This document shows, piece by piece, positions 23,290 to 27,533 of a stretch of 64,000 bases of DNA. The first letter of the stretch is position 1. Each line of letters opens with the position of its first letter. Made by a program: the position numbers and the translations under genes. Under the pieces are notes generated by a model that was given only the letters and a program-made list of their open reading frames with translations, did not search any database and was not told the origin of the DNA. The DNA comes from Candidatus Competibacteraceae bacterium (GTDB lineage: Bacteria; Pseudomonadota; Gammaproteobacteria; Competibacterales; Competibacteraceae), in contig JADJPA010000001.1 of the NCBI GenBank assembly GCA_016713505.1, positions 1,037,105 to 1,101,104 on the forward strand, written 5' to 3'.

Positions 23290-23303
23290 TTATTATATCA
23301 TCT
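23290..23303 (-). repeat. copy a of recurrent intergenic motif (minus strand reads AGATGATATAATAA); extended -10-like
   Basis: Read directly. GATGATATAATAA is identical to 60819..60831. Contains TGATATAAT (TGnTATAAT). Lies about 180 nt upstream of the minus-strand HPr-domain gene, so it is compatible with a promoter here. Confidence 0.7.
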
Positions 23304-23600
23304 TTTTATCGATGAAATTAGCGTTTTATCCTTGAAAAAGAACCGACTGCTGGCGCATCCGGCGGATGGGCCGATGAAGCGCAGCATAAGCCTATCATTT
23401 CCATATCGATAACGGAGTGCTAAACAAGGGAACGATTGACATACGCTCAAGATAGGCTTTACTTTCTGATGTCTGCTCCGGCAACCTCGGATGGCTCGGC
23501 GCGGAGCATCGATAGGCCATTCAGCACTGCGGTCCGGGAGCGACCGATCTGAACCCACCACGAACCGCATAACCACATCATCATAATGAGGAGTCACTAG

Positions 23601-24806
23601 ATGGCAAACAAAGAAGTCGTGATTGTTGGCGCCGCCCGGACGGCCATCGGCAAATTCATGGGCACCCTGAAAGACGTTCCGGCGCGCGAACTGGCGATCA
23701 CCGCCGCCAAGGCCGCGATCGAGCGGTCCGGCGTTCCAGCCGACCAGATCGACGAAATTTGCATGGGCCAGCTCTACGGCGGTATGCAAGGTTCTTTGCC
23801 GGCGCGGCAGGTGAGCATGCGGGTCGGGCTGCCCCATCGCAGCAGCGCTGTCTGCGTCAATCAAAACTGTACCTCCGGCATGCGCGCGCTGGAAATCGCG
23901 TGCCACAACATCATGCTCGGCCAGACCGAAATCGGGCTGGTGGTGGGCGTGGAGAGCATGACCAACGCCCCCTATCTGCTGCCCAAGGCCCGCATGGGGT
24001 ATCGGATGGGGCAGGGCAACATCGAAGACAGCATGATTCACGACGGTTTGTTCGATGAGCTGGTGCCGGGCCACATGGCGATGACGGCGGAGAACGTCGC
24101 GGTCAAGTACGGCATCACCCGGCAGGAATGCGACGAGCTGGCGCTGATCAGCCATAGCCGCTGCACCAAGTCGACCAAGGAAGGCGTCTTCAAGCGCGAA
24201 ATCGTGCCGGTCGAGATGAAATCCAAAAAAGGCTCGACCTTTTTTGAGGCCGACGAGAACTTCATCCCCGATGCCAGCATGGAAAAGATCTCCAAGCTGC
24301 CGACCGCCTTTAAGAAGGACGGCGTGGTGACGGCGGCCAACGCTTCCAGCATCAACGACGGCGCCAGCGCGGTGGTCATCATGTCTTCGGACAAGGCCAA
24401 GGCCCTGGGCCTCAAGCCGCTGCTGAAGCTGGTCAGCATCTGCAACGCTGGCATCGATCCGGTGGTGATGGGCCTGGGTCCGGCGGTGGCGATTCCCAAG
24501 GCGCTCAAGCAGGCGGGCATGAAGTTCGAAGACATCGACTATTGGGAAGTCAACGAAGCGTTTGCCGCCCAATGGCTCGGCGTCGGTCGGATGCTCAAGC
24601 AAGATCACGGCATGAACCTCACCACGGACAACTGCAACTTCAACGGTTCCGGCATCGCGCTGGGCCATCCGGTCGGTTCGACCGGGCTGCGGATCATAGT
24701 CAGCCTGTACTACGAACTAGAGCGTCAAGGCAAGACCACCGGCGGCGCTTCGCTGTGCGTCGGCACCGGCCCGGCCATGGCCTCGCTGTGGACCCGCAAT
24801 ATCTAA
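23601..24806 (+). CDS. acetyl-CoA C-acetyltransferase (thiolase II)
   Basis: 401 aa with a thiolase N-terminus (VVIVGAARTAIGKFMG), active-site Cys region (VNQNCTSGMRALE) and C-terminal GNCNFNGSGIALGHPVGSTG / CVGTGPAMA blocks. RBS GAGGAG upstream. Confidence 0.9.
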   Translation: MANKEVVIVGAARTAIGKFMGTLKDVPARELAITAAKAAIERSGVPADQIDEICMGQLYGGMQGSLPARQVSMRVGLPHRSSAVCVNQNCTSGMRALEIACHNIMLGQTEIGLVVGVESMTNAPYLLPKARMGYRMGQGNIEDSMIHDGLFDELVPGHMAMTAENVAVKYGITRQECDELALISHSRCTKSTKEGVFKREIVPVEMKSKKGSTFFEADENFIPDASMEKISKLPTAFKKDGVVTAANASSINDGASAVVIMSSDKAKALGLKPLLKLVSICNAGIDPVVMGLGPAVAIPKALKQAGMKFEDIDYWEVNEAFAAQWLGVGRMLKQDHGMNLTTDNCNFNGSGIALGHPVGSTGLRIIVSLYYELERQGKTTGGASLCVGTGPAMASLWTRNI

Positions 24807-24828
24807 GCGATCACCTTTGATCCTTCCC

Positions 24829-24850
24829 AAGGCGGCCTGCGGGCCGCCTT
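24829..24850 (+). terminator. hairpin after the thiolase gene (candidate terminator)
   Basis: AAGGCGGCC-TGCG-GGCCGCCTT, a 9-bp stem with a tetraloop, 23 nt after the stop. The T-run (TTTTT) only begins about 13 nt after the stem. Confidence 0.45.
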
Positions 24851-24865
24851 ACCGATGCGCCATTT

Positions 24866-24881
24866 TTATATCATCATCTTC
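24866..24881 (-). repeat. copy b of recurrent intergenic motif (minus strand reads GAAGATGATGATATAA)
   Basis: Exact reverse-complement 16-mer match to 61779..61794. Lies between thiolase (+) and serS (+), pointing back into the thiolase 3' end, so it is not placed like a normal promoter. Confidence 0.75.
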
Positions 24882-24971
24882 CAGCACAGCTCCCACAGTA
24901 AGATTCCGCTATAATCCGCTCCTGCCGCAAGAATCCCACTAGACGAGCTGGATCACGGAGCGCCGAGAATC

Positions 24972-26255
24972 ATGCTGGACCCGAAATTACTAAGAAGCGA
25001 GCTGGAGCAAACCGCTGTCAAACTGGCCCGACGCGGCTTCAAGCTGGATGTCGGAGCGATCAATGCCCTGGAAACCCAGCGCAAAAGCTTGCAGGTTCGC
25101 ACGCAGGAACTGCAAAACGAGCGCAATACCCGTTCTAAAGCCATCGGCCGGGCCAAGGCCAGCGGCCAAGACGTTCAGCCGTTGCTGGAGGAGGTCGCTG
25201 CTCTGGGCGGCGAGCTCAAGCAAGCCGAGAGCGCCTTGGAGAACCTGCAAGCACAACTTGGCGCCCTGCAATTGGGCATTCCCAATTTGCCTCACGATAG
25301 CGTCCCGGACGGAGCCGGTGAGGCTGACAACGCCGAAATCCGCCGCTGGGGCGAGCCGCGCGCGTATCCGTTTGCGGCGCGCGATCATGTCGATCTCGGA
25401 TCGGAAGGAGGGCTGGATTTCGAAGCGGCCACCAAACTGACCGGCTCCCGTTTTACGGTGATCCACGGCCAACTGGCGCGGCTGCATCGCGCACTGATCC
25501 AGTTCATGCTGGACTTGCATACCCAGGAGCACGGCTATCGGGAAGTTTACGTTCCCTATATGGTCAACGCCAACAGCCTGCGCGGTACGGGGCAACTGCC
25601 GAAATTCGAGGCCGACCTGTTCAAGCTGAGCGGCGAGATGGAGTATTACCTGATTCCGACCGCCGAAGTGCCGGTCACCAACCTGGTGCGCGATGAGATC
25701 GTGGGTTCCGACCGGTTACCGTTGCGCTTTGTGGCACACACGCCTTGTTTTCGCAGCGAAGCGGGTTCTTACGGCAAGGACGTGCGCGGCATGATCCGCC
25801 AGCATCAGTTCGAAAAAGTCGAGCTGGTGCAAATCGTCCGCCCGGCGGAGTCTTATGCGGCGCTGGAGGAATTGACCGGTCATGCGGAGCACGTCTTGCA
25901 GCGGCTGGACTTACCTTATCGGGTGGTGGCGCTGTGTGCCGGTGACATCGGTTTTTCGTCGGCCAAGACTTACGATCTGGAGGTCTGGCTACCCGGCCAA
26001 CAAAAGTACCGGGAAATTTCCTCGTGCAGCAATTTCGAGGATTTCCAGGCGCGACGGCTGCAAGCCCGCTGGCGCAATCCAGCGACCGGCAAGCCGGAGC
26101 TGGCCCACACCCTGAACGGGTCCGGACTGGCGGTCGGGCGGACTTTGGTGGCGGTGATGGAAAACTATCAGGACGAGCGCGGCCGCATCCGGGTTCCTGA
26201 AGCCCTCAAGCCTTATCTGGGCGGTTTGGATCATATCGTCCCCGACGGGCGTTGA
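24972..26255 (+). CDS. serS: serine--tRNA ligase
   Basis: 427 aa with an N-terminal coiled-coil arm and class II core motifs ([25 protein letters not shown]; [21 protein letters not shown]). Confidence 0.95.
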
Positions 26256-26372
26256 ACCGTTCTGGAAAGGAAATCCGACCGGCGAAAAACTGGCTTCTCC
26301 AACCAAGAATGCTAGGATGGCGCGCAGCGCAAACGATGCCTTCCACTGTCAAGTCCGAGAACGAAAAAAATC

Positions 26373-27497
26373 ATGATTGTCATTCTGAATCCCAACGTCG
26401 AGGATCACTCCGAGGAATACCGGCTGACGCTCGACTATTTAGAGCGGTTGCCGGGGATTTCCGCGCGCGTCCACAAGGTGCAAGGCACCCAACAAGGACT
26501 GACGGAAATCTATCTGATCGGCGATACCAAAACGCTGTCCGCCGAGGACATCAGCGCCCTGCCGGGGGTGGAGCGAGTGGTGCGCATTTCGGAGGAGTAC
26601 CGCATCCTGGGCCGGCATCGGGACGAGCGGCGCGCCAGCGGTTTCGATTACAACGGCGTACCGTTCAGCCAGGACCATCTCAACGTGTTCGCCGGACTGT
26701 GCGCGGTGGATACCCCCGAGCATGTGGAATTGATGCTGAAAGCCTTGCGCGAGCACGGTCAGGTCTGCACCCGGATGGGCGCCTACAAGCCCCGCACCAA
26801 TCCCTATTCGTTCCAAGGCCACGGCAAAGCCTGTTTGCCTTATGTTTTCGAGCTGGCCGGCCAGTACGGCATCAAGGTCGTCGCCATGGAGATAACGCAC
26901 GAAAGCCATGTCGAGGAAATCCACGACTGTCTGGAAAAAACCGGCCAACCGACCGGCGTGATGCTGCAAATCGGAACTCGAAACACCCAAAATTTCGAGT
27001 TGTTGAAAGCGGTCGGCCGCCAGCAGGAATTTCCGGTGCTGCTCAAGCGCGGTTTTGGCATCACCCTGAACGAGTCGCTCAACGCCGCCGAGTATCTGGC
27101 CAGCGAAGGCAATTCCCGCGTGGTGTTCTGCTTGCGCGGGGTGAAGACCAACATGGGCGATCCGCACCGCAACCTGGTGGATTTTAGCCACGTGCCAGTG
27201 CTGAAGCGCTTGACCCGGATGCCGGTGTGCGTCGATCCGTCGCATTCGGTCGGCTCGCGGGAACGGGCGCCGGACGGCCTATATGACCTGATGCACGCCA
27301 CCGCTCAAGGGGTGGTGGCCGGCGCCAATATGGTATTGGTGGACTTTCATCCAGCACCGGCCAAGGCGCTGGTGGACGGTCCGCAAGCGATGCTGTTGAG
27401 CGAGCTGGGTTGGTTTCTGGATGACGTTGCGGCGGCGCGCGCCTGCTACGAAAAACGCCAACGACTAGCGGAACAGTACAACGCCGGCGCGACTTGA
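26373..27497 (+). CDS. 3-deoxy-7-phosphoheptulonate (DAHP) synthase, type I-beta with N-terminal regulatory domain
   Basis: 374 aa. An N-terminal ferredoxin-like/ACT-like extension of about 80 aa is followed by a KDO8PS-like I-beta core (AGLCAVDTPE, GAYKPRTNPYSFQG, LKRGF, DPSHS). Confidence 0.85.
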   Translation: MIVILNPNVEDHSEEYRLTLDYLERLPGISARVHKVQGTQQGLTEIYLIGDTKTLSAEDISALPGVERVVRISEEYRILGRHRDERRASGFDYNGVPFSQDHLNVFAGLCAVDTPEHVELMLKALREHGQVCTRMGAYKPRTNPYSFQGHGKACLPYVFELAGQYGIKVVAMEITHESHVEEIHDCLEKTGQPTGVMLQIGTRNTQNFELLKAVGRQQEFPVLLKRGFGITLNESLNAAEYLASEGNSRVVFCLRGVKTNMGDPHRNLVDFSHVPVLKRLTRMPVCVDPSHSVGSRERAPDGLYDLMHATAQGVVAGANMVLVDFHPAPAKALVDGPQAMLLSELGWFLDDVAAARACYEKRQRLAEQYNAGAT

Positions 27498-27519
27498 CGC
27501 TGCTTGGTGCTTCGGCTTC

Positions 27520-27533
27520 TTATACCATCATCT
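27520..27533 (-). repeat. copy c of recurrent intergenic motif (minus strand reads AGATGATGGTATAA)
   Basis: 13/14 identical to copies b and e. Sits in the 40-nt gap between convergent genes (DAHP synthase stop 27497, J-domain gene stop 27538), where no promoter is expected. Confidence 0.65.

Follow-up and report, generated by a model that had tools for sequence, protein, structure and literature searches.

The region analysed here is a 64-kb window (64,000 nt; G+C content ~62%) of contig JADJPA010000001.1 from a Candidatus Competibacteraceae bacterium. Its subject is a short, asymmetric DNA word that occurs five times in the window, in two clusters on opposite strands, and the gene for a 300-aa protein that the two plus-strand copies bracket. 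An inspection of the letters alone, referred to below as the original prediction, had listed three minus-strand copies, and the sequences it gave were confirmed at all three positions: copy a at 23290-23303 reads AGATGATATAATAA, copy b at 24866-24881 reads GAAGATGATGATATAA, and copy c at 27520-27533 reads AGATGATGGTATAA. The plus-strand 16-mer at 61779-61794, also GAAGATGATGATATAA, was likewise recovered as the exact reverse complement of copy b. Two features had been missed. One is a fifth strong copy on the plus strand, GGTGATGATATAAT at 60816-60828. It came to light when all TGNTATAA words in the window were listed; there are five of these, all with GA directly on the 5′ side, so that each reads GATGNTATAA. 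The other is that the copies switch strand across a change of sign in the GC skew. Together with the Tus-fold protein encoded between the plus-strand copies, this strand switch led to the reading as replication terminators that is developed below.

The five sites, called a to e from left to right, share the 16-nt asymmetric consensus AGATGATGRTATAARA. The degenerate 13-mer GRTGATRRTATAA matched the window four times, compared with 0.00 matches in 100 dinucleotide-preserving shuffles. When the window was scanned with a weight matrix built from the sites of relatives (maximum 36.0 bits, listing threshold 10 bits), the five sites scored 29.2-36.0 bits and the next best position reached 12.3 bits at most. 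A weaker sixth copy had been proposed on the minus strand at 27-40; the string CATGATCTTATAAG is present there but falls below the 10-bit threshold, and we leave it out of the set. Site a lies in the divergent intergenic region between a 524-aa ORF (open reading frame; 21537-23111, minus strand) and a thiolase gene. Site c occupies a 40-nt gap between the stop codon of a DAHP-synthase ORF (27497) and that of a convergent DnaJ-domain ORF (27538).

Table 1. Coordinates of the Ter-like sites, the tus homolog and the GC-skew change in the window.
Feature	Coordinates	Strand	Sequence	Matrix score (bits)	Remarks
Ter-like site a	23290..23307	-	AAAAAGATGATATAATAA	29.3/36	Outermost of left cluster
Ter-like site b	24863..24880	-	AAGATGATGATATAAAAA	36.0 (maximum)	Perfect consensus; between thiolase and serS
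Ter-like site c	27517..27534	-	GAGATGATGGTATAAGAA	30.1	Innermost of left cluster
GC-skew sign change	39400..40000	.			Positive to negative on plus strand; from cumulative skew
Ter-like site d	60814..60831	+	AAGGTGATGATATAATAA	30.2	~30 nt before ATG of tus homolog; innermost of right cluster
tus homolog, divergent replication terminus site-binding protein	60858..61760	+			300 aa; assigned by family profile and AlphaFold fold
Ter-like site e	61780..61797	+	AAGATGATGATATAATAC	29.2	20 nt past tus stop; ~150 nt upstream of glgX-like ORF

The protein encoded between sites d and e was assigned through its family. Its close relatives (59-95% identity) all come from Competibacteraceae/Contendobacter metagenome-assembled genomes (MAGs). 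The window protein itself did not match the Pfam family PF05472 (Ter) at E ≤0.01, yet PF05472 matches have been precomputed for some orthologs, and a few already bear the name 'DNA replication terminus site-binding protein' in NCBI or UniRef; the assignment of the protein family is thus not new. A profile search against 1.84 billion cluster representatives retrieved 874 related clusters at E ≤1e-3. In an alignment of 102 diverse family members, which was used for both the profile and the structural model, PF05472 matched 62 members, with a best E-value of 7e-11. Comparison of the family profile with Escherichia coli Tus (sequence taken from L001) by hhalign gave a probability of 95.6% and an E-value of 1e-8 over 232 columns. 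The pairing placed Tus K89 and P95-G96 opposite the conserved R76 and P82-G83, and Tus A155-Y156-R157...P165...F170.W172 opposite A151-Y152-R153...P162...F167.W169. Judged from these profiles, membership of the Tus family appears remote but consistent at the sequence level.

The predicted structure agrees with this assignment. An AlphaFold2 model built from a shallow alignment (22 sequences, ~70% identity) was unusable, with a predicted local distance difference test score (pLDDT) of 57; the model from the 102-sequence alignment reached a pLDDT of 91.2 and a predicted template modelling (TM) score of 0.86. When the latter was compared with the PDB by Foldseek, the top four matches were the E. 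coli Tus-DNA complexes 4xr1, 4xr2, 4xr0 and 1ecr (E 1.9e-14 to 8e-14, probability 1.00, TM-score 0.62-0.68, ~325 columns, 14-15% identity). The fifth match had an E-value of 0.04. Because the Tus-DNA complexes were the sole significant matches, the predicted Tus fold can be regarded as secure. In Tus, two alpha/beta domains grip the DNA by means of interdomain beta-strands.

The two clusters lie on either side of a change in base composition. On the plus strand, the GC skew stays positive as far as ~39.9 kb and is negative from there on, whatever the strand of the genes, and the cumulative skew reaches its maximum at 39-40 kb. Such a positive-to-negative switch is the signature of converging forks, and we infer that the change at ~39.9 kb marks the fork-convergence (terminus) point between the clusters, with the minus-strand sites at 23.3-27.5 kb on one side of it and the plus-strand sites at 60.8-61.8 kb on the other. 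Counts of the FtsK-orienting polar sequence (KOPS) GGGNAGGG, 5 plus versus 0 minus to the left of the switch and 1:1 to the right, were too small to be decisive. The skew was negative around tus in 48 of the 60 loci of relatives introduced in the next paragraph. In the same orientation frame it was positive around serS in 4 of 5 independent loci of relatives, and also in L142, which duplicates the window. In two more distant members, L058 and L047, a canonical dif site (TTTCGCATAATGTATATTATGTTAAAT) was found 7-8 kb upstream of tus, on its inward side and within the predicted trap.

For the right cluster, we collected 60 Competibacteraceae loci with a tus homolog, 1.10 Mb in total. The exact core GATG[AG]TATAA was present 119 times, in every case on the strand that encodes tus and in no case on the other. 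Scattering without positional or orientation bias had been named beforehand as the outcome that would speak against a special element, and this strand count shows the reverse. Alignment of the 119 sites returned the same 16-nt consensus, with conserved positions reaching 9 nt upstream and 2 nt downstream of the TATAA pentamer; the impression that conservation extends well past a −10 hexamer was therefore borne out. Outside the 16 nt, the information content was only ~0.1-0.3 bits per position. This collapse in the flanks indicates that the conservation is neither residual similarity of recently diverged intergenic DNA nor part of a longer repeat unit. A G is conserved at the inner edge, in 79% of sites at position −3 and in 100% at position 0.

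Positions relative to tus were tallied for sites of at least 24 bits in the same 60 loci. On the tus strand, 37 sites lay upstream of tus at a distance of up to 150 nt, 36 just past its stop codon, and 37 in the 500 kb of sequence 1-10 kb further downstream, on the outward side. Only one was found in the 530 kb of upstream, inward sequence, and none on the opposite strand anywhere in the loci. Counted by relative, a same-strand site was present within 150 nt upstream of tus in 37 of 60 and just past the tus stop codon in 35 of 60. This is the pattern of a trap that has a primary site and, on its outer side, back-up sites in the same orientation. These sites hold syntenic positions across genomes in which Tus identity ranges from 59 to 94%.

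The left cluster was followed through homologs of SerRS (79-88% identity), which gave five relatives' loci around serS (L062, L144, L145, L146 and L147). The SerRS of the window is 100% identical to a protein of a Competibacter MAG at NCBI. Most of what a scan of metagenomes with SerRS retrieved came from other proteobacteria, and L062 was its sole close relative. Minus-strand sites recurred in these relatives at two or three of the same intergenic spots around the thiolase, serS and DAHP-synthase genes. A syntenic counterpart of site a was present in L144, L146 and L147; one of site b, ~75-100 nt upstream of serS, in all five; and one of site c, after the DAHP-synthase gene, in L144, L145 and L147. 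The sites persist despite a MatE insertion between serS and the DAHP-synthase gene, an absent thiolase gene or differing upstream genes. Two contigs, RXIW01000006.1 and JBAOHI010000021.1, carry both clusters, opposed and ~40 kb apart. RXIW01000006.1 has minus-strand sites at ~10.8 and 14.8 kb and a plus-strand site at 57.0 kb adjoining tus at 56.1 kb; the clusters are likewise opposed on JBAOHI010000021.1, with ~39 kb from serS to tus.

We interpret the locus as a narrow Tus-Ter replication fork trap, in which the five copies would be the Ter sites of the divergent Tus encoded next to sites d and e, and we put the probability of this reading at roughly 80%. The sites of the window and of the relatives all have their 5′ AGATG end toward the skew switch and their TATAA end on the far side, toward the origin. 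In E. coli, the 5′ end of TerB is the non-permissive face and is turned toward dif, and TerB autorepresses tus. With the AGATG ends turned toward the switch and the tus-proximal site on the strand that codes for tus, the sites are arranged as in E. coli. Copies that face each other across the meeting point of the forks would form a fork trap. The innermost sites, c and d, are 33.3 kb apart, and this distance, together with the innermost position of the tus-adjacent site, makes the arrangement one of the narrow 'type I' kind. A protein-binding site had been one of two explanations suggested for the motif, and the Tus-family reading agrees with this suggestion.

In the proposed mechanism, a monomer of the Tus homolog would clamp each 16-bp site. 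A fork coming from the origin side would meet the permissive TATAA face, displace the protein and pass, and a fork that had run past the terminus would meet the non-permissive AGATG face of a site and be arrested. This 'enter but not leave' behaviour assumes the binding polarity of E. coli Tus. Site d, which overlaps the promoter/leader region of tus, is probably also an autoregulatory operator that represses the gene.

Several observations weigh against this interpretation. Taken alone, the window protein had no match in Pfam, in NCBIfam or by phmmer against the PDB, and BLASTP against E. coli Tus gave similarity at random level only. What the analysis shows directly is the motif with its statistics, conservation and strand polarity, the predicted Tus fold and the skew change; that the Tus homolog binds the sites and thereby arrests forks in a polar way is what we infer. 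At the DNA level, the consensus can be set against E. coli Ter in three registers, each with 8-9 identities in 16 positions; there is no unique alignment, and with three equal registers we make no claim of DNA-level homology to E. coli Ter. In the Tus-Ter lock of E. coli, a G-C pair stands at the non-permissive edge and the C, C(6), flips into a pocket formed by I79, F140, H144 and G149. The register of the conserved inner-edge G residues of the present sites relative to C(6) is ambiguous. Of these pocket residues, F140 and H144 fall in a low-confidence part of our model and alignment (pLDDT 53-57, residues 121-140), and G149 pairs with an Arg. Within a 64-kb window the skew is noisy, and it is locally positive at 57-61 kb. 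A search of the window for canonical dif, allowing up to 3 mismatches or up to 7 arm mismatches, found none. The motif scans covered the 64-kb window and the fetched loci, and copies far from the terminus may exist. Finally, all five sites contain TGnTATAA and thus match an extended −10 element as well, which makes some promoter activity possible.

Among the alternatives, the one that survives best accepts that the Tus-fold protein binds the sites but makes it a transcription factor or a terminus organiser, similar to MatP/matS, that does not arrest forks in a polar manner. Pure autoregulation would be consistent with the overlap of site d with the tus upstream region, the lock-pocket residues are not demonstrably conserved, and the interval in the window contains no canonical dif. 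A regulator or organiser, however, has no obvious need for a strict polarity that inverts across the terminus, and the outward-only placement of the sites in relatives (37 in 500 kb outward versus 1 in 530 kb inward) would be left unexplained. In addition, polar fork arrest is the only characterised function of this fold (PMC8707476, PMC10331603). We therefore consider such a role improbable.

Less probable still is that the copies are strong extended −10 sigma-70 promoters (TGnTATAAT) with a lineage-specific upstream extension, driving either their neighbours or antisense or small RNAs. It is true that TGNTATAA is found in every copy and that sites a, d and e face the 524-aa ORF, tus and the glgX-like ORF, respectively, at a plausible distance; these three could keep some promoter activity. 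But copy b points into the terminator and 3′ end of the thiolase gene and copy c lies between convergent stop codons, with no downstream unit to drive, and the original prediction was right to call both poorly placed for promoters. A scan with −35/−10 consensus sequences found no −35 partner for any copy. Moreover, five occurrences of TGNTATAA in 64 kb with ~50 genes show that it is not the general promoter of this genome, the strand of the sites in relatives tracks tus and the replichore rather than the neighbouring gene (119 versus 0), and a 16-nt footprint with 9 nt 5′ and 2 nt 3′ of TATAA is unlike that of a promoter. The last candidate is a small mobile or repetitive element of the repetitive extragenic palindrome (REP) or miniature inverted-repeat transposable element (MITE) type, with the copies as its conserved core; the core of a small repeat element had also been proposed in the original prediction. 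In its favour, the word is AT-rich, intergenic and present in several copies, and the genome is GC-rich. This reading is effectively refuted by the unconserved flanks of the 119 sites, the lack of terminal inverted repeats and target duplication, and the fixed syntenic positions of the sites, which are not variable insertion points.

Compared with the E. coli system (TerA-J; PDB 1ECR, 2I06, 4XR0-2), the putative trap has the same protein fold, an asymmetric site of ~16 bp and two clusters of opposite polarity that flank the terminus and are backed up on the outside by further sites of the same orientation. TerB (AATAAGTATGTTGTAACTAAAGT) and site d are both on the coding strand of tus, 11 nt and ~30 nt, respectively, ahead of the ATG of their own tus gene. 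In contrast to E. coli Tus, the window protein goes undetected by PF05472 and is only 14-15% identical. The sites also differ, AGATGATGRTATAARA in the window and AGNATGTTGTAACTAA in E. coli, as do the spans between the innermost sites, 33 kb and ~270 kb, respectively, and the window has a second site directly after the tus stop codon.

The closest architectural parallel is provided by the narrow type I traps of non-Enterobacteriaceae Enterobacterales, which span 56 kb in Edwardsiella tarda and 18 kb in Dickeya paradisiaca (Toft et al. 2021, PMC8707476). As in the window, the tus-adjacent Ter is innermost on one side, the span is tens of kilobases and the trap lies at the GC-skew switch. Those traps, however, use a canonical Tus, and their Ter sites in D. 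paradisiaca and P. mirabilis share 83% identity with TerB of E. coli; the window has three plus at least two sites, not a dyad. The plasmid Tus/Ter systems of R6K and R1/R100 resemble a distant family member, L149, which has paired inverted sites beside its tus homolog, but the window locus is chromosomal, syntenic across the family and positioned at the skew switch. RTP-Ter of Bacillus subtilis shares the outcome of a polar fork trap and an autoregulatory site at the gene; unlike the present protein, for which all significant fold matches were to Tus, RTP is an unrelated winged-helix dimer that acts on bipartite A/B sites. Extended −10 sigma-70 promoters share TGnTATAA(T) with each site and differ in footprint, in positions and in the strand rule.

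Among the distant members of the protein family, L149 (P0150, ~33% identical, from a TARA ocean scaffold) carries inverted copies of GGTGATGGTATAAT at 9090-9107 (minus strand) and 9819-9836 (plus strand), 0.7 kb apart and with their 5′ ends facing each other. ParB, Prok-E2, Prok_Ub and SNase genes are nearby, and the locus looks like a mini fork trap borne by a plasmid or an integrative and conjugative element, with the same core word. The Competibacteraceae matrix found no convincing site in L148, L150, L151 or L152; their Ter words, if they have any, differ from that of Competibacteraceae. In two marine-type loci (G+C content 48-51%), L148 at 9558-10885 and L152 at 6598-7918, the Tus-family gene directly follows a gene for a TerB-domain protein (tellurite-resistance family). 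Its start overlaps the end of that gene in L148 and lies 13 nt past it in L152. Both loci have the order Dus - transaldolase - TerB-domain - tus, with no matrix-matching site nearby. In L150 (5927-15282), a 34%-identical member from a genome of 38% G+C lies ~4 kb from serS-lolA-ftsK, the trio that also borders the left Ter cluster of the window. The same locus contains ATGATGATGTTGTAAAAT (4748-4765, minus strand), an intragenic, low-scoring string that joins the 5′ half of the Competibacteraceae word to the E. coli Ter core ATGTTGTAA.

The genes near the left cluster in the window include ftsK (13667-16312), lolA (19295-20191), rarA (20148-21518) and serS (24972-26255). The 524-aa minus-strand ORF next to site a is conserved and syntenic in relatives and had no Pfam match. 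It had been labelled an HPr-domain gene, and we found for this label a sub-threshold match only (TIGR01003, residues 346-390, 25.8 bits versus a cutoff of 47.9).

The terminus segment between the clusters (38310-43892) has the appearance of a mobile element. It contains a gene for a KfrA_N plasmid-type DNA-binding protein (38310-39365, minus strand, E 1e-22), a short gene fragment without a Pfam match (39526-39843), a gene for a PPDK_N-domain protein and one for a 388-aa tyrosine recombinase (42726-43892, plus strand). Adjoining the KfrA_N gene and near the recombinase gene is a dif-like quasi-palindrome at 39426-39450, CATAATACGTATTTATG, which has the form CATAA-N7-TTATG, with a 7-bp spacer rather than one of 6, and lies 0.5 kb from the skew change. 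The segment may be an insertion at or near a former dif.

Around tus, the interval 52557-64000 contains genes of glycogen metabolism, namely malQ (54421-55893, minus strand), glgC (55945-57216, minus strand), glgB (57391-59664, plus strand) and a glgX-like ORF from ~61945 that was called by eye only; at 59797-60786 there is a gene for a CysB-like LysR regulator. A local positive skew, against the trend of the replichore, is conserved over the 2.5 kb immediately before tus in 91% of relatives. Directly after site e and upstream of the glgX-like ORF, the AT-rich stretch at 61815-61850 contains a 7-nt inverted repeat, TTAGATT-N15-AATCTAA, and may be a separate regulatory site.

Resident tus genes have been described as confined to most Enterobacterales, Aeromonadales and chromosome 2 of Pseudoalteromonas, and RTP to some Bacillales; this restricted distribution of fork traps has been used to argue that they were acquired recently and are dispensable (PMC6549158, PMC10331603). 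None of the clades for which a resident tus has been reported (Galli et al. 2019, PMC6549158) includes the taxon of the window. A full-text literature search that combined Tus or terminus-binding protein with Competibacter retrieved nothing relevant, and the literature searched describes neither the Ter word nor the trap nor its conservation in Competibacteraceae. The broader proposition, for which we see about even odds, is that the Tus-Ter trap of the Competibacteraceae is resident, has been inherited vertically and uses a Ter code of its own, and that it belongs to a large, deeply divergent and mostly unannotated branch of Tus. Members of that branch (the 874 clusters, defined at 50% identity) occur in chromosomal marine-gammaproteobacterial contexts and in contexts that resemble mobile elements.

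If the interpretation is correct, the Ter site of these bacteria would double as an extended −10-like element, and a second, independent Tus/Ter pair would be available for asking which features are essential, such as the lock cytosine, the length of the site and the autoregulatory site. In practical terms, the 16-mer would mark the terminus in MAGs of Competibacter and Contendobacter, which are abundant glycogen-accumulating organisms of wastewater plants. The argument for recent acquisition would be weakened by a conserved, correctly polarised chromosomal trap in a gammaproteobacterial family unrelated to those clades, all the more with a Tus of 14-15% identity and a different Ter word. On the broader proposition, Tus-type traps would be considerably more widespread and older than in the current view, which limits them to three clades and regards them as recently domesticated from plasmids.

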